The notes beneath the pieces were generated by a model. That model searched no databases. It saw nothing but the letters and a program-made list of their open reading frames with translations, and was not told the DNA's origin. From NCBI GenBank assembly GCA_043815185.1, contig JBDRJF010000005.1, positions 3,407 to 67,406 of the forward strand: a stretch of DNA of 64,000 bases, written 5' to 3'. Shown piece after piece: positions 10,871 to 59,626 of the stretch (position 1 is the stretch's first letter; each line of letters opens with the position of its first letter). The position numbers were made by a program, and so were the translations under genes. The DNA comes from Candidatus Omnitrophota bacterium (lineage in GTDB: Bacteria > Omnitrophota > Gorgyraeia > Duberdicusellales > 4484-171).

Positions 10871-10982
10871 TCTCTACTCCTAAATAAGAAAACCCACCAT
10901 AGTTCCAATCTTTGCCAAACTTTCGGCAACCCGGCTACTACTCCTTGAAAAAATTGTCTTTATGAATTCCCGGCTTTGCGCT

Positions 10983-10995
10983 CCGCCTTAGGCGG
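10983..10995. repeat. Short hairpin motif CCGCCTTAGGCGG (copy 1 of 2)
   Basis: The 13-nt string is identical to 30173-30185. 5-bp GC stem with a TTA loop. Lies in the leader region upstream of the pilin array. Confidence 0.5.
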
Positions 10996-11106
10996 ATTGC
11001 CTTTTTTGTTGCCTCCCCTAATTACCATATAACTATAACATAAATACCCGAAATATTGCAAGAAAAGAATCGGAAAACTCTGTCCTTTTTGAAAGCGCTT
11101 TAAATT

Positions 11107-12606: not shown

Positions 12607-12631
12607 CCGGTTGAGGCTAAGCCTCAACCGG
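12607..12631. repeat. REP palindrome copy 1 (CCGGTTGAGGCTAAGCCTCAACCGG)
   Basis: Perfect 25-nt palindrome in the yraN / 480-aa gene spacer. Confidence 0.9.
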
Positions 12632-12755: not shown

Positions 12756-12780
12756 CTGGTTGAGATCAGATCTTAACCGG
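12756..12780. repeat. REP variant (CTGGTTGAGATCAGATCTTAACCGG)
   Basis: Same outer arms GGTTGAG...CT(C/T)AACC but a different centre. Overlaps the yraN stop codon (12773-12775). Two other hairpins lie between it and REP copy 1: 12663-12687 (ttgaagtc-N9-gacttcaa) and 12718-12742. Confidence 0.6.
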
Positions 12781-13195
12781 GTAGAAAGTTGATATTTTTG
12801 TAATGGTTAATGCGGCTAACTCGATAGTTATTATCTAAGACAATACAAATTGCATCTATTCTATACTCTTTCTTCCATCTTTTCTTAGCTACGTAAGCTT
12901 TGGCATTATTGATAAGCTTAATTTTTTTGTTTCGGTTGAGCGACTCTTCAGGTATGCCAAACCTCTCACCCTTCCTTGTCCTCACCTCAATAAATACTAA
13001 TATACCTTTGCATAAGGCAATTAAATCAATTTCAGCCCACCTTGTCCGGTAATTTTGTTCAATTATAACGTACCTGTTAGACTGTAAGTATTTCTTGGCT
13101 ATTTCTTCTCCTAACCGGCCGGTTTTAAGATTCTTTGCCTTAATCGAAAGGCTTTTCTGAATGATTTCTGGATTGTCTTCTTTAAAAATACTCAT
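12773..13195 (-). CDS. yraN: YraN-family (UPF0102) endonuclease-like protein
   Basis: 140 aa; GRLGEEIAKKYLQSNRYVIIEQNYRTRWAEIDLIA...ILVFIEVRTR matches the YraN pattern. ATGA overlap with comM. Confidence 0.8.
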   Translation of the reverse strand: MSIFKEDNPEIIQKSLSIKAKNLKTGRLGEEIAKKYLQSNRYVIIEQNYRTRWAEIDLIALCKGILVFIEVRTRKGERFGIPEESLNRNKKIKLINNAKAYVAKKRWKKEYRIDAICIVLDNNYRVSRINHYKNINFLPG

Positions 13196-14733
13196 AAACT
13201 TTCTGCCTGAATTTTTGGCCTGTATTGTAAAGCTTCTGCCATATGGACTACATTTATTTCTGGTAAACTCTCTAAATCGGCTATAGTCCTTGCCACTTTT
13301 ATCATTTTAAAATAAGAGCGCGCGGAAAGCCCAAAAGCAATACCAGCCCGGCGCAGTAATTGTTTTATCTCTTTTGAAAGCTTACAATGTTTTTTTATCT
13401 GTGCGTTTTTCATCTCTGCATTAGTATAAATATCCTCTTCTTGGAAACGAGCCCGTTGAATTTTTCTGGCTGAAACCACACGTTTTTGTATTTGTTCGGA
13501 GGTTTCTAAACCGGTCTTTATTTGCTGATCATCGGAAAGCTCTTTAACGTTAACTGCCGGAACATTAACATGAAGGTCAATACGGTCTATCATCGGACCG
13601 GAAACCCGTTTCCTGTATTTTTCTATTTCCCTTTGCGTGCATGCGCAAGGCTTTTTAGGATGATACAAGTAACCACAGGGGCAAGGATTAGCTGAAGCTA
13701 TCAGCATAAATTTACAAGGATACCTTACTCTTTCTCTGCTGCGGGAAATGGAAACCTGGCCATCTTCTATAGGTTGTCTTAACGCTTCTAAAACACTACG
13801 GGGAAATTCATTGAACTCATCCAAAAATAATGTTCCACGATGGGCCAAACTTATTTCTCCAGGCTGAGGCCTTGTGCCTCCGCCAATAAGGCCAACCTGG
13901 GAAATAGTATGGTGAGGTGACCTGAAAGGGCGTGTTTTAATAATTGAACCTTGTGGCGGAATACGGCCGGCAGCCGAATATATTTTTGTAACCTCCAACT
14001 GCTCTCCACCCATTAACGCCGGTAAAATGCCTTGAACTGCCCGTGCCAACATGGTTTTACCTGAACCCGGGCTACCGGACATAAAAAGATTATGCCCTCC
14101 GGCAGCTGAAATCTCCATTGCCCTTTTAGCTTGCTCTTGGCCTAAAATCTCTACCATATCAAATTCAGCCCTAACAGCACCCTCTTCCTCATCCACATCC
14201 TTAAATTCAACCGGCTGGATTTCGATTTCATCTAATAAATAAGCTAATAAATGATTTAGGTTTTCAATAGGATAAACGTCTATTCCTTTGACAACAGCTG
14301 CTTCGTTTGCGCATGATTTTGGCACAAATATATTTTTAATTCCCTTTTCTTTAGCAAACAATGCTAATAGTAATGCCCCTTTGGTATGGCGTAATGTTCC
14401 GTCAAGAGAAAGCTCGCCAAAGAAAAGGCTACCTTTGGGAATTTTGAATTGAATGATTGATGCTAAAATGCCTACCGCTATAGGCAAATCATAGAAAGAA
14501 CCTTCCTTGGGGACATCGCCCGGTGCTAAATTAACCACAATTCTTCTTGAAGGAAATTCAATATTTGAATTTATAATTGCGGTTCTAACTCTCTCTTTGC
14601 TTTCATCCACTGCTTTACTAGGCAAGCCAACGATTTCAAAAGCCGGTAAACCTCTATTGGCAACATTTACCTCTACATCTATACCAATGGCCTCAAGCCC
14701 TGAATTTGACGCTGATAAAACCTTAACTAACAT
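13192..14733 (-). CDS. comM: YifB/ComM-family Mg-chelatase-like AAA+ ATPase
   Basis: 513 aa. Lon-like N-terminal domain (GLPAFEIVGLPSKAVDESKERVRTAI), Walker A GSPGSGKTM, Cys cluster ANPCPCGY...PCAC, C-terminal ChlI-like region. Confidence 0.85.
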   Translation of the reverse strand: MLVKVLSASNSGLEAIGIDVEVNVANRGLPAFEIVGLPSKAVDESKERVRTAIINSNIEFPSRRIVVNLAPGDVPKEGSFYDLPIAVGILASIIQFKIPKGSLFFGELSLDGTLRHTKGALLLALFAKEKGIKNIFVPKSCANEAAVVKGIDVYPIENLNHLLAYLLDEIEIQPVEFKDVDEEEGAVRAEFDMVEILGQEQAKRAMEISAAGGHNLFMSGSPGSGKTMLARAVQGILPALMGGEQLEVTKIYSAAGRIPPQGSIIKTRPFRSPHHTISQVGLIGGGTRPQPGEISLAHRGTLFLDEFNEFPRSVLEALRQPIEDGQVSISRSRERVRYPCKFMLIASANPCPCGYLYHPKKPCACTQREIEKYRKRVSGPMIDRIDLHVNVPAVNVKELSDDQQIKTGLETSEQIQKRVVSARKIQRARFQEEDIYTNAEMKNAQIKKHCKLSKEIKQLLRRAGIAFGLSARSYFKMIKVARTIADLESLPEINVVHMAEALQYRPKIQAESL

Positions 14734-14751
14734 ACCTCACCCCCCACCAAA

Positions 14752-14799
14752 CCGGTTGAGGCTAAGCCTCAACCGGTCTTTAAGCCTCAACCGGTCTTT
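14752..14799. repeat. REP palindrome copy 2 with a tandem half-site duplication
   Basis: CCGGTTGAGGCTAAGCCTCAACCGG at 14752-14776. The 18-nt unit aagcctcaaccggtcttt occurs twice in tandem (14764-14781 and 14782-14799). Abuts the dprA stop. Confidence 0.9.
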
Positions 14800-15676
14800 A
14801 ATCGCATTTCCCAGTATTTATATAATACTTTCCTCCCTCTTCCAATAATAAACCCCTTAGCTGCATAAGAGAAAGTATGGTACCTATCTCAGCAACTGAT
14901 TTTTTTATAAAACGAGATAGGTCATCTACTTTCATGGGCTCACGTTGTAATTCTTCTAATACGGCTTGCTCAAAACTATTTAAACTTGACAACCGTGATG
15001 AAACTTTTGGAGATCCGAATCGAATTGTATCATAGCTTGCCAATACATCTTCCGAGCTAGTTACAATATCAGCGCCTTCCTTAATAAGTTGTAAAATACC
15101 CTGTGAATTTAAGCTGGTAAGAGGGCCAGGGACAACAAAAAGTTTTCTTTTGTAACTCCTAGCAAGGCCCGCTGTAATCAAAGAGCCGCTTTTTTTACCA
15201 GCTTCAACGACCATAGTCACCTTGGATAAACCAGCGACAATTCTGTTTCGTTTAGGATAAGTCCATACAGCCGGCGAAAAACTCCCTTCAAACTCTGATA
15301 TGACTAACCCGTTATTTTCTAATATTTCATTATATAAACTCTCTTGATGTTGAGGATGAATCATGTCAATTCCGCATGGCATAACTGCGATGGTCTTTCC
15401 TCCAGCATCTACTGCTGCTTTATGCGCTGTTGCATCAATTCCGTACATGAATCCGGAAACAATTGTTACCCCGGCACTTGATATTTCTGATACTAATTTA
15501 GTGGTGATTTGCTTACCATAAGCTGTCATCCTCCTTGAACCCACAACTGCCAAGCAGTTTTCAAGAATAGAAGCATCCCAATTTCCCTTGTAATAAATTT
15601 TTTCCGGAGGAGAAGGAATCTCCTTAAGCAACTTAGGATACTTTGAATTTTCAATCGTAACCACACCACGCTTCAT
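14798..15676 (-). CDS. dprA: DNA processing protein DprA (Smf)
   Basis: Rossmann-like DprA core (LAVVGSRRMTAYGKQ...GIDATAHKAA...). Probable start is MKRGVV at 15676; the track start 15718 is a non-ATG codon inside REP copy 3. Confidence 0.85.
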   Translation of the reverse strand: MKRGVVTIENSKYPKLLKEIPSPPEKIYYKGNWDASILENCLAVVGSRRMTAYGKQITTKLVSEISSAGVTIVSGFMYGIDATAHKAAVDAGGKTIAVMPCGIDMIHPQHQESLYNEILENNGLVISEFEGSFSPAVWTYPKRNRIVAGLSKVTMVVEAGKKSGSLITAGLARSYKRKLFVVPGPLTSLNSQGILQLIKEGADIVTSSEDVLASYDTIRFGSPKVSSRLSSLNSFEQAVLEELQREPMKVDDLSRFIKKSVAEIGTILSLMQLRGLLLEEGGKYYINTGKCD

Positions 15677-15692
15677 TTTGCTAACTTTTGAT

Positions 15693-15715
15693 CGGTTGAG
15701 GCTAAGCCTCAACCG
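15693..15715. repeat. REP palindrome copy 3
   Basis: CGGTTGAGGCTAAGCCTCAACCG, 8 nt downstream of the RAYT stop codon. Confidence 0.9.
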
Positions 15716-15723
15716 CACTCTTA

Positions 15724-16434
15724 TTAATCAATGGTCAACATACCTAATTTTTCTCTCAGATTCATAGAAAATATACAGTCTTTTGCAAACTTTTTATATT
15801 TTTTGGAGCATGGAAACATTTCTCCTAATATATCTTTACCTATAATCGGTGAATTTCTTTCTCCGGCGTAATCCGCTAAACTGAAATAGGGATATTTAGC
15901 AGCCCATTGATAGGCATCATCAAAATTTTTTATAGCCGTTTCGAAGCCCTTAGGGTAAAGTTCAAAGGGATTCTTTACCTGAATATATACGCTCAGATAT
16001 CTTAAATATTCATCGTTGTTTACTACTCTTGCTTTATAAGGGCCTTGGAGAAACCTACCAGATTCTTGATATTTAGCGTTAAAATAGGTGGCCATACCAG
16101 TGCCAAACTTTTGCATAAACAACGCAAGACCACCTTCACTAATCGCCTTAAGAAGAAGATGAAAATGGTTTTCCATCAAAGAAAAAGCAATTATCTTTAC
16201 AAGTGGCCTTTGAGGAGGCCAATCTTTTAGCCAAATTAATTTTTTACCAAATGCCAGACCTATTTTCCTCCTTAGGCTTCTAAAAGGATTTGCAATCGGT
16301 ATTGAGGTATTAAAATAATATAACATCTGTAAAAAACGCCATCTATCACAAGCCTCACGAACTATTGCCTGTTTTCTGTTTCCTCTGTTATATACATGCA
16401 CATAACTGCCTATCGTAAAAACTTCTTTTCTCAT
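15724..16434 (-). CDS. REP-associated tyrosine transposase (RAYT), IS200/Y1 HUH family
   Basis: 236 aa. HUH motif HFH at residues 90-92 (ENHFHLLLKA). N-terminal YVHVYNRGNRKQAIV. Tyr/NP motif LSVYIQVKNPFEL. Size and motif order fit Y1 transposase-like RAYTs. Confidence 0.75.
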   Translation of the reverse strand: MRKEVFTIGSYVHVYNRGNRKQAIVREACDRWRFLQMLYYFNTSIPIANPFRSLRRKIGLAFGKKLIWLKDWPPQRPLVKIIAFSLMENHFHLLLKAISEGGLALFMQKFGTGMATYFNAKYQESGRFLQGPYKARVVNNDEYLRYLSVYIQVKNPFELYPKGFETAIKNFDDAYQWAAKYPYFSLADYAGERNSPIIGKDILGEMFPCSKKYKKFAKDCIFSMNLREKLGMLTID

Positions 16435-16452
16435 TTAAGTTAGTTTAATGTG

Positions 16453-16475
16453 CGGTTGAGGCTAAGCCTCAACCG
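16453..16475. repeat. REP palindrome copy 4
   Basis: CGGTTGAGGCTAAGCCTCAACCG, 19 nt upstream of the RAYT start codon. Confidence 0.9.
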
Positions 16476-16798: not shown

Positions 16799-16880
16799 CT
16801 CAGCCACCTCCTTCTTATTAAACACCTGCCTATACACACTACCTGACCTAAATTAGGACTGTTCCAAAATGCAACAGTCC

Positions 16881-16962
16881 CTGATTACATAGATTAAATA
16901 CAGATTCCAAAGATTAAATTATTCTTAAGCACTGTAATCTCTTTTTTAATCATTGTAATCAG
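16881..16962. repeat. Long imperfect AT-rich palindrome built from GATTA(CA)/TAATC words (element A)
   Basis: ctgattacatagattaaatacagattcc ... ttaatcattgtaatcag: the arms are reverse complements with a few mismatches. Shares agattacatagattaa and taatcattgtaatc with 34661-34730. Flanked by hairpins 16856-16879 and about 16962-16988 that share tgcaacag. Confidence 0.7.
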
Positions 16963-18301: not shown

Positions 18302-19363
18302 TTAGTCTGAGAAGGCCTTATCGCCAAGTAGATCTAGCTTCTGGAAGTCAGCAAAGAATTTGGGATACATCCTCATGGTAGTGGTAAATTTTCCCTTTAT
18401 CTTGCCGTCAGGGTTCTTACCTTCAGCCTTAAATACAAATAGGTTTTGAATGGTAATTTCTCCCCGCTCGAGATCTCTTACTTCACTAATATGAGTTATG
18501 CGGCGAGAACCATCAAGAAATCTTTCTTGCTGAACAATTATATCTACAGTATTGGCAATCATCTTTCTTATTTCCCCGATTGGCAATTTTATCCCTGAAG
18601 AAAGTATCATTGTCTCCAGACGGCTGACTATTTCCTGGGGAGAATTACCGTGGACTACTGCTAAGGTGCCTTTATGTCCGGTAGACATAGCCTGAATCAT
18701 ATCTATTGCTTCCGCGCCTCTTACTTCACCGACAATAATTCTATCCGGCCGCATCCGCAAAGCATTTCTGATCAAATCCCGCAAAGTAACTTCACCCTTA
18801 CCCGCCTCATCGGGAGAACGTGTCTCTAGCGAAACTAAATTCTTATGATGGAGTTTAAGTTCCGCGGTATCCTCTATGGTAACTATCCGCTCATCTTTGG
18901 GAATATGGAAGGAAAGCATCTCCAGGGTGGTAGTCTTTCCTGCACCAGTTGCTCCGGAGAAAAGTATGTTTAGGCGCCCCTTGATACAGGCAATTAAAAG
19001 CTCAGCCATCTTTTGACTTAAGGTCCCTTTGGCTGTTAAATCATCGAGGCTCTTTATCTCTTGAGAGAATTTTCTGATTGTAATTGCCGCTCCCAGGCGA
19101 GCTAAGGGGCTGATTATAACGTTGACTCGGGAACCATCTTCTAAACAAATGTCAGCGTAAGGGGAGGCAACAGATACGTTTCGCCCGCCCTTCTTAAAAA
19201 CCTCATCAATCACTTCTTTTATCTCTTGAGGATTAAAAATCACATCTATACTCTTCTTTCTGCCTGCTACTTCGATAAAAGTAGCCTGAGAGCCATTGAC
19301 CATGATCTCAGTAATAGCTGGGTCGCCCAATAACTTTTTGATTTTTGTTGCTCCGTCTGGCAT
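18302..19363 (-). CDS. cpaF: CpaF/TadA-type secretion ATPase, stand-alone paralogue
   Basis: Walker [67 protein letters not shown]. Probable start is ATG 19363 (MPDGATK), 4 nt after the upstream stop; the track start 19429 overlaps the upstream gene. Confidence 0.85.
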
Positions 19364-25187: not shown

Positions 25188-25778
25188 ATGAAAAAATCTC
25201 TAAATATAGTCTTAGATACTAGTATTTTTGTTAATCCTGATTCCCGAGTTCATTTCGGGAATACACCCAAGGCAGCTTTCTCTAATTTCTTAGACCACTT
25301 AAAGGATAAAAAACATATTAACTGCTATATCCCTCCCTCAGTATATGAAGAGTTAGCAAAATTCATCGAAAGATTACCCCCGGCAGATAAACTAATTTTA
25401 ATCAACAAAAAACCCCCTGCTTCTTATCAAACCCCGGTCCCAAGCTTATTAGTATATGAATTCATTGAGGAAATGCGCCTAAGAGTCAACAAAGGCCTGC
25501 GAATCGCTGAAAAATATGCCCATAAAGGAATAACCGTGGCCGGGGAGACTAATAAGGAAAAGTACGAAGAATTAATAAAAAGTCTGCGCGGTGAATACCG
25601 CAGTGCTCTGCGCGAAGGAATTATTGACAGCAAAGAAGATTTTGACTTAATCCTTCTGGCCAAAGAAATAAATGCTTATCTCGCTACCTCTGATCTGGGA
25701 TTGGTAAGGTGGGCTCAAAAGTTAGGCCTAACCTGCATCAACGCTTGGGAACTTAAAGAAATAGTGATTAAGCCTTAA
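25188..25778 (+). CDS. RNA-free (protein-only) RNase P of the HARP / UPF0278 PIN-like family
   Basis: 196 aa. [63 protein letters not shown] and [17 protein letters not shown] match blocks I recall from Aquifex Aq_880 and archaeal RNA-ligase-partner homologues ([46 protein letters not shown]). Confidence 0.75.
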   Translation: [196 protein letters not shown]

Positions 25779-26784
25779 TAATAGAGGTAACGATTTCGCG
25801 GGTAATATCCTGAATAGTGATTATTCCGTAAATTTTTCTGCCCTTTAAAACCAAAGCGATACTTTCTTTCTGGGACTTTAATTTTGTAAAAATTTTGTGA
25901 AGCTTATGATTAAAACCAACTTTGACTATCGGCCTTATAAATTGCTGCCAGCTTATTCCGCCTTGGTAAAATAAATCATAAATATTTACATAACCGATAA
26001 TTTCTTTATTCTTTCCTCCAGAGGTAGATCCGTCCTTTCGGCCTGAGGCTAAGGCTGGGGCTGGGGCGGAATATACCGGATAACGGGTAAAACGATATTG
26101 CTTAACCGTGGCCAGAATAGTTTTATAGGAGTCGGCATAGTCAAAAGCAATTATTTTTTTACCCCTGACACAAACATCTTTAATCCGTTCCCTTCTGAAT
26201 TCAAAAACTTCCTCAATCGCTTCTTTCTCGCCCCGGTCAATACCTCCTTGTTTCTCTATCTCTTTAACCAAAAATTTTATCTCCTCTTTAGTTACAAAAA
26301 AAGAGCGGGGCTTAGCCTTTCTTGCAAAAATTTTTACTAAAAACTTACTAACTGCTTCGATACTTTTTACAATCGGTAAGAATAATTTTTCGAAAAAACT
26401 AATTAAGCCTACTACTTGACAGCTAAAATCCTCCTTGAGGAAGCGGCCGATATTCTTAGGGATAAGTTCAGCAAAAATCACTACAATTGGCGTAAAGATA
26501 AAGGTAATCCATAGGTTGCTTAATCTTAAGCCCCGGTTAATTAGAAAAAAGGTAAGAAAACTAGTACTTAATACCAAAGATATGTTTGTCCCAACCAGGG
26601 TGGTAACCAAAAACCTATGGGGATTTAAGATAAACTCATAGACTTTCCCAGCTTTTCTATCGCCTTTATTCTGGCGATGCCGCAACTTAAGAGCCGGGGA
26701 AGAGATAAAACTTATCTCGCTGGCAGCAAAAAATCCCTGGAGGATAACGAAAATTAGGCAACTTAATAAGTATAAGTAAATCAT
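25768..26784 (-). CDS. CNNM/CorC-family DUF21 + CBS-pair membrane protein
   Basis: 338 aa. DUF21 TM region with the ASEISFIS motif, then a CBS pair. CBS1 is interrupted by SAPAPALASGRKDGSTSGG (see repeat 26047-26080). No CorC_HlyC C-terminal domain. Confidence 0.7.
   Translation of the reverse strand: MIYLYLLSCLIFVILQGFFAASEISFISSPALKLRHRQNKGDRKAGKVYEFILNPHRFLVTTLVGTNISLVLSTSFLTFFLINRGLRLSNLWITFIFTPIVVIFAELIPKNIGRFLKEDFSCQVVGLISFFEKLFLPIVKSIEAVSKFLVKIFARKAKPRSFFVTKEEIKFLVKEIEKQGGIDRGEKEAIEEVFEFRRERIKDVCVRGKKIIAFDYADSYKTILATVKQYRFTRYPVYSAPAPALASGRKDGSTSGGKNKEIIGYVNIYDLFYQGGISWQQFIRPIVKVGFNHKLHKIFTKLKSQKESIALVLKGRKIYGIITIQDITREIVTSIIKA
26047..26080 (-). repeat. GC-rich in-frame insertion, short member of an RPE-like family
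   Basis: Minus strand CCGCCCCAGCC-ccagccttagcc-TCAGGCCGAAA. Both 11-mers recur in the same order in bioC (58842-58908). Contains cttagcctca, also present in the REP. Confidence 0.55.
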
Positions 26785-26812
26785 ATCTTTAAAAAATTAA
26801 AAGTTAAATATA

Positions 26813-26894
26813 AAAAACCAAAAACACAGATCAAATACGTAAAAACATTTTTGTATTTTTAATATGTGTATTTAATATTTAATTTTTGGTTTTT
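26813..26894. repeat. AT-rich inverted repeat between the two CNNM genes
   Basis: aaaaaccaaaaa (26813-26824) and tttttggttttt (26883-26894) are perfect 12-nt inverted repeats 58 nt apart. The interior is also partly self-complementary (aaatac / gtattt words). Confidence 0.6.
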
Positions 26895-26912
26895 AATCTT
26901 CGAATTACGTTT

Positions 26913-30155: not shown

Positions 30156-30172
30156 ATCTCCTCCTCAATGAC

Positions 30173-30185
30173 CCGCCTTAGGCGG
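30173..30185. repeat. Short hairpin motif CCGCCTTAGGCGG (copy 2 of 2)
   Basis: Identical to 10983-10995. Sits in the 38-nt mnmE-folE spacer. Confidence 0.5.
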
Positions 30186-30193
30186 AGAATTGA

Positions 30194-31600
30194 TCATTTC
30201 CCAATACAAAAATTACTAAAAATACTCTCTAAAATCTCCTCAGAAATTACTTCTCCGCTAAGCCGGCCTAAATTATCTAAACACAACTTTAATTCTAGAT
30301 TCATAAAATCTATAGGCTGCCCTTCACCCAGGAAGGTCTTTACCTGTTTAAGGCTGACTCTTACCTTATCTAAAATCTGCTTCTGATAATGGCTAAGAAA
30401 AATAATGTTTTCCCGTCCTACCCCTTTTTTATAAACTACTCTGTAAATAGCCTTCTCTAAGCCAGCTAAACCTTTACCTTTTAAAGCGCTCATCTTCACT
30501 ATAACTGCTCCCGGCATCTCTCTTAAATCCAGGCGTTGGGATAAGTCGCTCTTATTTATTACGAAAATTACATTTTTGGCTTTTACTTTATCAAGGAGAA
30601 AAGAATCCTCGTTCCCTAAGCGGCGTGAGCCATCAAGAACTAAAATAACTAAATCGCTCTTCCGGAAAATATCTAAAGACTGCTTTAAAGCTTTCTTGGC
30701 TATTAAATCTTTGGGCTCTAAGATACCGGCCGTATCATAAATTCGAAGCGGCACACCTCTTATATTTATCGTCTCCTCAATTACATCACGGGTAGTGCCG
30801 GGTAATCGGCTCACAATAACCCTTTCTTTTTTGAGTAAACAATTAAACAGGGTGGATTTCCCGGCATTGGTCTTACCGCAGATAACACACTTAAGCCCCT
30901 CCCGCATAATTTCAGCTTCCTGGTAACCTTCAAGAAGATTAACTACCTCTTTCTCTATTTTAGCGATTTTTACTCCTAAGTCTAGCGGAACATCTTCAGC
31001 TACATCTTCGGGAAAATTCAGCCTACTCTCAGTCTCGATGAATAATTCTTTTATATTTTCCTTTAATCTCCTTATTTTTAAGGATGCCTGGCCTCTTAAT
31101 TGCCCGGCAGCCAAAACCAGAGTATCTTCACTCTTGGCCTCAATAATTCCTCGAATGCTCTCAGCTTGGAGCAGATCAATTCTCCCCCTCACTAAAGCTC
31201 GATAGGTAAACTCACCCGGCAGAGCCAGCCGAGCTCCGGATTTCAAAGATATCTCTAAAATCTTATTTACTACCGCAGCTCCTCCATGGGAAGATATCTC
31301 AACCACATCTTCCCGGGTATAAGTTGAGGGTTTACGCATGATGCTCAATAAAACTTCATCTATTATTTCCTCCCTCTTTTTTCTCCCCTTAGCTTTCTCT
31401 ATAATCCACCCATAGTGAAGAGTGTAGGTCCTGGCCTCTTTTATATTCTTTTTTCTGGCTGGCTTAAATATTTTAGCGGCGATTGTTAAAGCTTTGTTGC
31501 CGGACAGCTTAATTACTCCCAGAGCTGATTTACCGGGGAAAGTGGCAATAGCCGCAATAGTGTCCCCTACTTTGTAGTCCTTTAATCTAAATTCTCTCAT
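30194..31600 (-). CDS. mnmE: tRNA modification GTPase MnmE
   Basis: 468 aa. N-terminal DTIAAIAT, G-domain GKTNAGKSTLFN / DTAG, C-terminal FCIGK. Confidence 0.9.
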   Translation of the reverse strand: MREFRLKDYKVGDTIAAIATFPGKSALGVIKLSGNKALTIAAKIFKPARKKNIKEARTYTLHYGWIIEKAKGRKKREEIIDEVLLSIMRKPSTYTREDVVEISSHGGAAVVNKILEISLKSGARLALPGEFTYRALVRGRIDLLQAESIRGIIEAKSEDTLVLAAGQLRGQASLKIRRLKENIKELFIETESRLNFPEDVAEDVPLDLGVKIAKIEKEVVNLLEGYQEAEIMREGLKCVICGKTNAGKSTLFNCLLKKERVIVSRLPGTTRDVIEETINIRGVPLRIYDTAGILEPKDLIAKKALKQSLDIFRKSDLVILVLDGSRRLGNEDSFLLDKVKAKNVIFVINKSDLSQRLDLREMPGAVIVKMSALKGKGLAGLEKAIYRVVYKKGVGRENIIFLSHYQKQILDKVRVSLKQVKTFLGEGQPIDFMNLELKLCLDNLGRLSGEVISEEILESIFSNFCIGK

Positions 31601-34647: not shown

Positions 34648-34660
34648 TTTGCTTCGCAAA

Positions 34661-34730
34661 TGATTACGCAGATTAGAAAAAGATTACATAGATTAATTAA
34701 TCATTGTAATCTCTGTTTAATCTTTTAATC
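34661..34730. repeat. Long imperfect AT-rich palindrome built from GATTA(CA)/TAATC words (element B)
   Basis: tgattacgcagattagaaaaagattacatagattaa|ttaatcattgtaatctctgtttaatcttttaatca. Five GATTA words then four or five TAATC words. Shares 15-16-mers with element A (16881-16962). Directly upstream of purH. Confidence 0.7.
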
Positions 34731-34731
34731 A

Positions 34732-34770
34732 AGAGATTTCTGTCTTCTTAAGGTTTTTCCGGAAATCTCT
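34732..34770 (-). terminator. Stem-loop overlapping the stop codon of the YchF-like gene
   Basis: agagatttc (34732-34740) pairs with gaaatctct (34762-34770): 9-bp stem, 21-nt loop. On the minus-strand RNA it is followed by UUGAUUAAAAGAUUA, which is A/U-rich but not a clean U-tract. Confidence 0.3.
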
Positions 34771-58792: not shown

Positions 58793-59626
58793 CTATTTAG
58801 TACCTCGGCAAAAGAAAATTTGATAGGTAGCCACTATATTTTTTCGGCCTGAGTCTTCAGTCAAAGGCTGACCAGCCTCTGGTTGGGACCAGCCTTTGGC
58901 TGGGGCGGGAAACTTCTTCTTATAAATCTCTTCTATTGAAGCTACCTTCTGGGGAGTCCAGAAAATTTCCCCTTTTAAGCCATCACCTCTTGTCCCGGTA
59001 CATCTTAGGTTCTCTAATAGCTCTAGCAATGAGTTATAATTCTGATTATAAACCTCTTCTTTTACTTCAACCTCACTAAAAATAGCTTTTAATATCCCCT
59101 CTAATTTTTCCTTGCCCAAAAAATTACTGGCAGTTATCGCAAGAGGCTTACCGAGAAACTCTTCCAGGCAACTATGCAACTGGGAAAAAGTCTCAGGCCC
59201 AAAGGTAGAGAATAAAATAAAACCTCCTCTTTTAAGGGCTTGCTTGTATCTTATTAAGTCTGATTTCAAATCCTGAAACCACTGGAAACTAGCATTAGAA
59301 CTTATAAGATCAAACTCTTCTTCCAGGTTAAGGCTTTCAGCATCAGCAACAATGAATTCTATCCTCTCATCCCCGAGCTTTTCCTTGGCAACTTCAATCA
59401 TCTTGGCTGATATATCTACAGCTTTTATCTTCGCTTTTGGAAATTTATCTCTGAGAAGCTTGGTATAATTTCCGGTTCCGCAGCCAATATCTAAAATATT
59501 ATTATATCGATTACTATCAATTTCATTAATAAGCCGAGAAGCACAAAGGTTCTGAACCCTTGAATGCTGATCATAATCCCGGGCATGTTTTGAGAAGTTT
59601 TCTTCGATTATTCTTTTATCGATCAT
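58793..59626 (-). CDS. bioC: Malonyl-ACP O-methyltransferase
   Basis: 277 aa. SAM motif ILDIGCGTGNYT; position in the bio operon. The C-terminal region carries an extra ~20 aa, PAPAKGWSQPEAGQPLTEDSGR (see repeat 58842-58908). Confidence 0.8.
   Translation of the reverse strand: MIDKRIIEENFSKHARDYDQHSRVQNLCASRLINEIDSNRYNNILDIGCGTGNYTKLLRDKFPKAKIKAVDISAKMIEVAKEKLGDERIEFIVADAESLNLEEEFDLISSNASFQWFQDLKSDLIRYKQALKRGGFILFSTFGPETFSQLHSCLEEFLGKPLAITASNFLGKEKLEGILKAIFSEVEVKEEVYNQNYNSLLELLENLRCTGTRGDGLKGEIFWTPQKVASIEEIYKKKFPAPAKGWSQPEAGQPLTEDSGRKNIVATYQIFFCRGTK
58842..58908 (-). repeat. GC-rich palindromic in-frame insertion, long member of an RPE-like family
   Basis: Minus strand CCGCCCCAGCC-aaaggctggtcccaaccagaggctggtcagcctttgactgaagac-TCAGGCCGAAA. 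Internal 9-bp stem caaaggctg/cagcctttg with a nested accag/ctggt. Same end 11-mers as 26047-26080. Confidence 0.6.

Follow-up and report, generated by a model that had tools for sequence, protein, structure and literature searches.

A nested hairpin insert in bioC of a Candidatus Omnitrophota bacterium and its probable place in a widespread family of 15-nt modular DNA micro-elements

The bioC gene and its insert

The stretch of DNA analysed here (the window: 64,000 nt of contig JBDRJF010000005.1 in assembly GCA_043815185.1, from a Candidatus Omnitrophota bacterium) carries a bioF, hydrolase, bioC and bioD cluster in which the bioC gene contains an in-frame, GC-rich palindromic insert, the subject of this report. 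The gene (58793-59626, minus strand) encodes a class I methyltransferase of 277 residues, and the database entry identical to its product, from a Candidatus Omnitrophota metagenome-assembled genome (MAG), is named malonyl-ACP O-methyltransferase BioC. By codon reading, the composite hairpin insert occupies 58844-58909 (minus strand), comprising 66 nt or 22 codons that encode PAPAKGWSQPEAGQPLTEDSGR, and is flanked by TTT (Phe, 58910-58912) and AAA (Lys, 58841-58843). A first-pass annotation of the same DNA had placed a GC-rich segment of about 20 extra residues at 58842-58908 (67 nt); the insert is real and markedly GC-rich, with 64% G+C at 58865-58914 compared to 37% in the surrounding 2 kb, while its boundaries had been set 1-2 nt off and the added residues number 22. 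The nested hairpin described in that annotation was borne out by folding, the insert having as single-stranded DNA a minimum free energy of -13.8 kcal/mol (z = -2.2), with pairing of CAAAGGCTG to CAGCCTTTG and an inner stem ACCAG/CTGGT.

Most of the 120 BioC homologues compared are 255 residues long and read KRF/KNIVATYQ across this point (a slash between codons or residues marks the point of insertion), so the segment is a lineage-specific insertion. Close relatives have 0, 5, 10, 20 or 22 added residues, all at this same position. A BioC tree does not separate a single gain of the insert from many, as these relatives, about 80% identical, branch from it in a star-like manner. An AlphaFold model of the protein (mean predicted local distance difference test score, pLDDT, 83.5) places the insert between the last helix (residues 225-238) and the last strand (264-276), and residues 243-261 have pLDDT below 50; the insert is thus modelled as a disordered loop of low confidence, compatible with the idea of a tolerated surface segment.

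Nested units at the bioC site

The insert is built from GC-rich hairpins of 15 nt, in each of which a stem of 6 bp encloses a loop of 3 nt (consensus TCCGCC-NNN-GGCGGA); an example is TCCGCC-TCA-GGCGGA, which reads SASGG. As each unit amounts to five codons, the frame is kept whatever the number of units. The commonest form is a 30-nt double hairpin, TCCGCC AAA GGCGGA TCCGCC TCA GGCGGA. Relatives of the window display a series of forms at the bioC site: L007 has the empty site AGG TTT/AAA AAT, L004 has TTT[TCCGCC TCA GGCGGA]AAA, a perfect 15-nt palindrome reading SASGG (this BioC carries TCCGCCTCAGGCGGA), L006 has two units in tandem, and L008 has about four, two of them perfect. The form in L003 is 60 nt long, and here a 30-nt double hairpin, [CCAGCC AAA GGCTGG][TCAGCC TCA GGCCGA], is nested in the first unit, immediately behind that unit's 5' arm, with the second unit following.

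Read in the coding sense, the window insert consists of CCCGCC, CCAGCC AAA GGCTGG, TC, CCAACC AGA GGCTGG TCAGCC TTT GACTGA, AGAC and TCA GGCCGA, and each part (all on the minus strand) can be matched to the forms in relatives. The first is the 5' outer arm (58904-58909; TCCGCC in relatives), followed by a perfect 6-3-6 unit (CCAGCC AAA GGCTGG, 58889-58903, reading PAKGW) that corresponds to the opening unit of the inner double hairpin in the 60-nt composite; L001 and L003 have the same unit in their BioC inserts, and L008 has the variant CCAGCC AGA GGCTGG. Comparison with the L003 composite shows that a further 30-nt double hairpin (CCAACC AGA GGCTGG plus TCAGCC TTT GACTGA, 58857-58886) splits the former TCAGCC arm into TC and AG(A)C. 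This double hairpin lies in reverse orientation and in another phase, reading QPEAGQPLTE, which matches the PPEADPPLA-type reading of reversed copies elsewhere (e.g. P0130 in the CNNM alignment, see below). The remaining loop and 3' arm (TCA GGCCGA, 58844-58852) belong to the split unit TC..AG(A)C TCA GGCCGA, which is, as in L003, the second unit of the inner double hairpin. The outer 3' part AAA GGCGGA and the trailing TCCGCC TCA GGCGGA unit of L003 are missing from the window, a 24-nt deletion, and the lost nucleotides lie between direct repeats TCAGGC(C/G)GAAA. The 66 nt of the window can therefore be read as the 60-nt L003 form plus a 30-nt reversed double hairpin minus 24 nt, making the insert a three-level nest of 15-nt units. 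The same 66-nt form is present in the BioC of another relative (P0002/L001), whereas a contig index queried for the exact BioC of the window gave no match.

A second copy in a CNNM/CBS gene and further copies among relatives

The window contains exactly two copies of each of two strings from the ends of the BioC insert, TTTCGGCCTGAG (12 nt) and GGCTGGGGCGG (11 nt): one in the insert and one at 26036-26069, in the same order and on the same strand. Chance is negligible as an explanation, since exact 12-mer matches are expected about 0.008 times in 128 kb and the 11-mer is in addition co-linear within 60 nt. The first-pass annotation had recognized this recurrence in an unrelated gene, and the second copy proved to be larger than the shared ends: a 57-nt segment (26014-26070, minus strand) in a gene for a CNNM (DUF21) and CBS domain protein of 338 residues (25768-26784, minus strand), the majority of whose orthologues are insert-free with 319 residues. 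It reads TCCGCC CCAGCC CCAGCC TTAGCC TCA GGCCGA AAG GACGGA TCTACC TCT GGAGGA (SAPAPALASGRKDGSTSGG), a decayed copy of the 60-nt composite. Exactly these 57 nt are absent from L190, which is 89% identical to the window at the DNA level and was aligned across 21 kb, leaving the empty site GTA TAT/AAG AAT. Across CNNM orthologues, 0 to 33 extra residues are found at a single F/K site, and the inserts of 4-33 residues in other lineages include SASGG, SAKGGSASGG and SAKGGSPPEADAPLEHVSGG; the PPEADAPLE within the latter is the reading of a reversed unit pair. The first CBS domain of the window protein escapes detection, an example of how such inserts can mislead alignments, domain calls and phylogenies.

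Other genes of relatives hold further copies. In L001, a radical-SAM gene contains exactly 30 nt between GGC TTT and AAA AAA that four relatives lack, and in metagenomes the 60-nt composite recurs in RtcB (L163, at TTT/GAC) and partly in ValRS (L181), which argues that composites propagate as units. The metagenome scan, with an end-to-end pattern, gave 60 matches, of which three (L155, L163 and L181) are real; the others were judged to be chance matches in GC-rich DNA. The RtcB open reading frame (ORF) of L163 encodes 1014 residues, which is roughly double the length normal for RtcB, and the central part of the protein is an intein-like block.

The alignment with L190 also contains a 30-nt intergenic indel (window 30166-30195) between two co-directional genes, with the hairpin CCCGCC TTA GGCGGA (30172-30186), possibly a single-unit member of the family. 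Conversely, a 110-nt intergenic segment of L190 (18377-18486) with the unit TCCGCC TCT GGCGGA is absent from the window near 18305. Three AT-rich segments of 104-119 nt in the window (34651-34769, 26794-26904 and 16856-16959) are likewise absent from L190; the first and last bear GATTACA/TGTAATC-type inverted repeats, and together they look like a second intergenic element family, resembling miniature transposable elements with inverted repeats (MITEs). At 10922-11011 (minus strand), downstream of an ORF of 480 residues with weak transposase-type helix-turn-helix matches, lies a borderline match to the c-di-GMP-I riboswitch (35.5 bits, gathering score 35) holding the hairpin TCCGCC TTA GGCGGA, of the same form as the element unit. 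As part of this borderline riboswitch match, the hairpin (at 10982) was not counted as a copy.

Anatomy of the element and its insertion sites

The arms TCCGCC and GGCGGA bound every form of the element, although they span only 6 bp. The 30-nt form varies mostly in its first loop, and some copies use TCAGCC/GGCTGA as their stem instead. Changes within the stem are mostly compensated, as illustrated by stem pair 3-13: 53 copies have C-G here, 14 have A-T and 3 have a mismatch.

Three pairs of empty and filled sites could be compared exactly at the DNA level: BioC (TTT/AAA), the radical-SAM gene (TTT/AAA) and CNNM (TAT/AAG). All three insertions lie at a T/A step, and none of the three pairs has a target duplication or deletion. 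The DNA flanking the copies is rich in T on their 5' side and in A on their 3' side. Where the 5' flank was not constrained by the search query, T was found at position -3 in 44 of 79 copies, T at -2 in 51 and T or C at -1 in 59; this flank is A-rich and then shows a T-T-Y bias that is not fixed, while the 3' flank was constrained by the query. Targeting of hairpin tips was rejected as a general rule: a few copies centre longer palindromes, but over 123 copies the complementarity of the flanks equalled that of a re-paired control.

Distribution across genomes, genes and reading frames

A scan of one genome per GTDB species with the query KKWTCCGCCTCAGGCGGAAA returned at least 120 loci (123 matches) compared to about 9 expected by chance. 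Among the matches listed, 80 of 123 carry the same 30-mer, TCCGCCAAAGGCGGATCCGCCTCAGGCGGA, and in these the upstream 15 nt form another unit although the query fixed only three bases there. The 1.03 Mb of loci fetched around the matches contain 243 family units, against 1 in a reversed-sequence control, and several of these loci hold additional independent copies. According to record titles, the hosts among the matches listed include Saccharibacteria and many other members of the candidate phyla radiation (CPR), Omnitrophota, Planctomycetota, Verrucomicrobiota, Kiritimatiellae, Lentisphaerae, Bacteroidota, Ignavibacteria, Desulfobacterota, uncultured Gammaproteobacteria, Elusimicrobia, Cloacimonadota and WOR-3, among others, with G+C contents from 31% to 71%. 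The first-pass view of a mini-element hosted by this genome, analogous to Rickettsia palindromic elements (RPEs) and tolerated in coding regions, is upheld as to its kind by the lineage-specific insertion, the further copies and the modelled loop, but not as to its range, as the family extends over many phyla.

This distribution bears directly on whether the inserts could have arisen locally, by template switching, snap-back synthesis and slippage at TTT/AAA. The number of units does vary at a single site (1, 2 or about 4), near-identical tandem repeats make slippage plausible, and the 24-nt difference between the window and L003 falls between direct repeats. However, the inserted sequence is unrelated to its flanks and is identical in more than 100 unrelated loci in different genes, and slippage alters copy number but cannot remake the same 30-mer. 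A local origin, which we regard as very unlikely, is already contradicted as the source of the element and survives only for changes in unit number.

Copies are about evenly divided between genes and other DNA: at least 60 of about 124 lie inside ORFs of at least 150 residues, and 38-64 of about 124, depending on the ORF threshold, lie outside long ORFs. Judged by their sequences, the genic hosts are common housekeeping genes, including RecJ, GlnA, LysRS, PheT, PilB/GspE, RecG, ProRS, DapA, RluD and DinB. Within ORFs of at least 150 residues, the SASGG frame accounts for 41 copies and the remaining sense frames for 12, while 7 copies are antisense. The 30-mer reads SAKGGSASGG in LysRS, DapA, RecJ, GlnA and similar genes; in LysRS and DapA it coincides with an exact 10-residue gap when compared to solved structures (3a74 and 2ehh, respectively), whereas in GatB it lies one base out of phase, reading PPKADPPQAE, and forms an insertion relative to 3h0l. 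The reading frames of BioC, CNNM, LysRS, DapA and GatB all stay open despite their inserts. Besides PPKADPPQAE, the GatB of L071 has a second low-complexity insertion, IPNPKSQIPNKSQIQNSK, compared to solved GatB structures.

That the SAKGGSASGG frame and the sense orientation are in excess is what purifying selection in favour of the Gly/Ser/Ala reading would produce. Part of this excess presumably also reflects the target itself: of the three coding phases, one is closed to TTTAAA, since a TAA stop would result. The prevalence of this frame, together with the location of the BioC insert in a modelled loop, might also suggest that a Gly/Ser/Ala-rich loop is itself the selected feature, an adaptive linker in BioC and other proteins. 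Yet other readings occur (PPKADPPQAE in GatB and QPEAGQPLTE in the window insert), as do non-coding copies; protein-level selection does not demand a perfect DNA palindrome; close relatives lack the insert; and the hosts are functionally unrelated housekeeping enzymes. The linker explanation is largely contradicted by these observations and appears highly improbable.

Proposed explanation and search for a mobilising enzyme

In our view the insert in BioC is probably one copy of a selfish DNA micro-element that is non-autonomous. A sequence that propagates at the DNA level is indicated by the occurrence of the same DNA in unrelated genes, in different frames, in intergenic DNA and in different phyla, and further by exact presence or absence between close relatives, by nesting and by the decay of copies. 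As the three empty and filled pairs show, copies are inserted seamlessly at T/A steps in T-rich/A-rich DNA, with neither duplication nor loss of bases, and they nest in and beside each other to form composites such as the 60-nt and 66-nt forms. One phase and orientation yields small flexible residues (the predicted SAKGGSASGG) and is the commonest inside genes, with the copies lying in loops. Purifying selection presumably sorts insertions by frame, orientation and position in the protein, and changes in unit number may partly stem from slippage between near-identical tandem units. Movement would occur in trans by an enzyme recognising the terminal hairpin arms. Our best guess for this enzyme is a transposase of the HUH/Y1 type that binds hairpins and acts on single-stranded DNA, because such enzymes insert and excise with neither duplications nor scars and the element has hairpins at both ends. 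The presence of the element is also patchy among relatives that are about 80-90% identical, which requires either repeated insertion at one site or seamless excision and is reminiscent of HUH/Y1 enzymes. The element probably has no function for its host.

Several results weigh against this explanation. When the 1,961 ORFs of 120 loci were clustered by comparing each with all others, no protein family occurred near copies in more than 5 loci. The G-rich strand holds 32 of the 64 intergenic copies, which thus show no orientation bias relative to local GC skew; fork-coupled single-strand transposition should leave such a bias, although skew measured across loci of 8 kb is a poor guide to fork direction. 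The window has a single Y1/HUH gene (15724-16434, minus strand), which encodes an IS200-like Y1_Tnp protein of 236 residues and is flanked on both sides (15693-16475) by a 23-nt palindrome, CGGTTGAGGCTAAGCCTCAACCG, in an arrangement of the type known for repetitive extragenic palindromic (REP) sequences and REP-associated tyrosine transposases (RAYTs). The gene was rejected as the mobiliser, as its flanking repeat is a different one and not made of TCCGCC units. Similarly, the Y1 homologues of two CPR genomes (L192 and L194) have their own repeats and no TCCGCC units nearby. The tests run thus give the HUH/Y1 guess no support, with no skew bias and no linked protein family. Moreover, the element was not found in 72,556 plasmids or 50,697 phages and was present on one contig only in IMG/VR, and without a vector it is difficult to account for a 30-nt sequence that is identical in different phyla. 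Finally, 117 of the 120 genome matches listed are MAGs.

The latter figure, along with the lack of matches in plasmids and phages of cultured organisms, raises the question of a MAG assembly or sequencing artefact. An insert-bearing BioC (P0005) is however found on about 20 contigs from JGI, ENA and NCBI, the same insert is present in the independent assemblies L004 and L005, and P0002 was found in two samples. Point mutation, compensatory stem changes, decay and nesting follow host phylogeny, and a frame and orientation bias is not expected of an artefact, to which we give hardly any credence. The matches also include MAGs of the MFD series (L013 and L082), which we believe to be long-read (Nanopore) assemblies, their platform being unconfirmed. 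The sole cultured organisms among the matches listed are three Halomonas isolates (L097, L118 and L120; 68-69% G+C), with a single unit in TTTTCCGCCTCAGGCGGAAAA of an orthologous gene; this is probably native sequence and not the element.

The Y1 gene of the window is of interest in its own right. Further copies of CGGTTGAGGCTAAGCCTCAACCG are located at 12607, 14752, 17086 and 58760, the last between the bioC stop and the bioD start. The gene belongs to a cluster encoding Y1_Tnp, DprA, a ComM-like Mg-chelatase ATPase and a UPF0102/YraN nuclease (12773-16434, minus strand), and this order is shared with the two CPR genomes (L192, 10001-14201; L194, 7292-11256), where one gene is interposed at each locus, for a phosphoribosyltransferase in L192 and a 23S_rRNA_IVP protein in L194. 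The three Y1 proteins are 55-62% identical, and on either side of each gene lie inverted or palindromic repeats that are specific to the genome concerned. Together this suggests a domesticated HUH enzyme tied to genes for single-strand DNA processing.

The presence of this conserved cluster in CPR and Omnitrophota is one of the observations that would fit a functional nucleic-acid motif, such as a site for DNA uptake, recombination, partition or RNA processing, that is useful to the host or favoured by biased recombination and whose genic copies are simply the harmless ones. The strong conservation of the 30-mer across phyla, stem covariation that preserves the hairpin and the intergenic location of about half of the copies agree with this as well. 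On the other hand, the copies are true insertions and not substitutions converging on a motif, they nest within each other, their positions vary between close relatives, and the CPR loci with the DprA cluster had no units. We know of no protein partner of the hairpin. Overall, a functional motif appears unlikely.

For the selfish micro-element, a broader reading can be formulated, to which we assign about an even chance: it would represent a hitherto undescribed, pan-bacterial class of ultra-small mobile DNA, built of 15-nt modules with a 30-nt core, inserting seamlessly at T/A steps, nesting within itself and spread recently and horizontally through more than 15 phyla of mostly uncultivated bacteria by a hairpin-recognising enzyme. 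Its length and sequence would be suited to life in genes, with lengths always in multiples of 5 codons, a Gly/Ser/Ala linker frame and possibly seamless excision; these features form part of the same evenly balanced proposal. Rfam returned no match to the element, and no description was found in open-access papers and preprints when searched by DNA strings, peptides and topic.

If this reading is true, no transposable unit smaller than the element would be known, its size being 3-10 times below that of any known MITE. It would also supply loop insertions generally to the proteins of CPR, Omnitrophota and other lineages, offering an explanation for many unexplained Gly/Ser/Ala loops of 5, 10 and 20 residues. 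The compact genomes of CPR and Omnitrophota have little non-coding DNA, and modules of five benign codons would show how a parasite can persist there. Duplication-free insertion at T/A and identity across phyla would point to a hairpin-handling enzyme that is possibly programmable or very promiscuous, and the inserts could serve as marks of recent gene flow.

Comparison with known systems

RPEs, which Ogata et al. (2000/2002) and Claverie & Ogata (2003) are said to have described, are reportedly selfish palindromes in protein-coding genes. The present element resembles them in that in-frame palindromes are tolerated as added surface segments (BioC, CNNM, LysRS, DapA and GatB stay open, and the BioC insert is a predicted loop), in being also found in non-coding DNA and in having no transposase of its own. 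It differs in size and composition, RPEs being about 100-150 bp and falling into Rickettsia-specific families compared to the 15-nt unit, 30-nt form and 57-66-nt composites seen here, and in range, RPEs being confined to one genus or order (Rickettsia or Rickettsiales) whereas the element occurs in many phyla and nests its copies. The two were set apart by length and host. The analogy is thus functional only, with no sign of relatedness in size or sequence, and the element would extend gene-dwelling palindromes of the Rickettsia kind from one genus to much of the uncultivated bacteria. The term RPE itself occurs in PMC1779305.

Organellar genomes provide a second parallel, in the G+C clusters of yeast mitochondria (PMC4464245 and PMC8811140) and the hairpin elements of sponge mitochondria (PMC2800124). 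Like the element, yeast G+C clusters are GC-rich palindromic inserts of 30-60 nt in AT-rich DNA, single, tandem or nested, occasionally present in frame (var1) and with no known enzyme. They differ in being organellar, as the hosts here are bacterial, and also in their sequences, in lacking 5-codon modules and in not being common to distant hosts; the cluster classes were set apart by description. Yeast G+C clusters have characteristic flanking target motifs.

The small dispersed repeats (SDRs) of heterocystous cyanobacteria, which Elhai et al. (2008) are said to have reported, are very small mobile repeats. With about 21-27 nt, nesting and no classical MITE signature of inverted repeats and duplication, they come close to the element, but they belong to one cyanobacterial group, are mostly intergenic, have other sequences, are not built of simple 6-3-6 modules and are not characteristically found in frame in housekeeping genes. 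The SDR work is cited in PMC3116915 and PMC3733652.

REP sequences and the related REPINs, which are associated with RAYTs (Y1 HUH transposases)(PMC3116915, PMC3733652), are short GC-rich hairpins, often paired and non-autonomous, that are thought to be moved by a hairpin-recognising single-strand enzyme without duplications. They are however extragenic, carry GTAG/CGTC tags (PMC3733652), are species-specific and flank the RAYT gene, whereas the element is often intragenic, is identical across phyla, has no GTAG/CGTC tag at its ends and places no TCCGCC units around the Y1 gene.

MITEs are known to enter genes, as for the QMITEs of Coxiella burnetii (PMC5896051; reviewed in PMC10969869 and PMC2229807), and share with the element a non-autonomous, palindromic nature and copies in ORFs that add residues. 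The 6-bp TCCGCC ... GGCGGA ends of the element correspond to terminal inverted repeats, but the three empty and filled pairs have no target duplication. Classical MITEs are 50-500 bp long, derive from insertion sequences and combine terminal inverted repeats with a duplication; the element is too small and lacks the duplication, and among the fetched loci no long form was found. Derivatives of IS200/IS605 (similar to palindrome-associated transposable elements, PATEs) share with the element a hairpin at each end and insertion without duplication, and when set beside their fixed tetra- or pentanucleotide target, 3' of which they insert, the 5' flank of the element is T-T-Y biased (44, 51 and 59 of 79) and not fixed.

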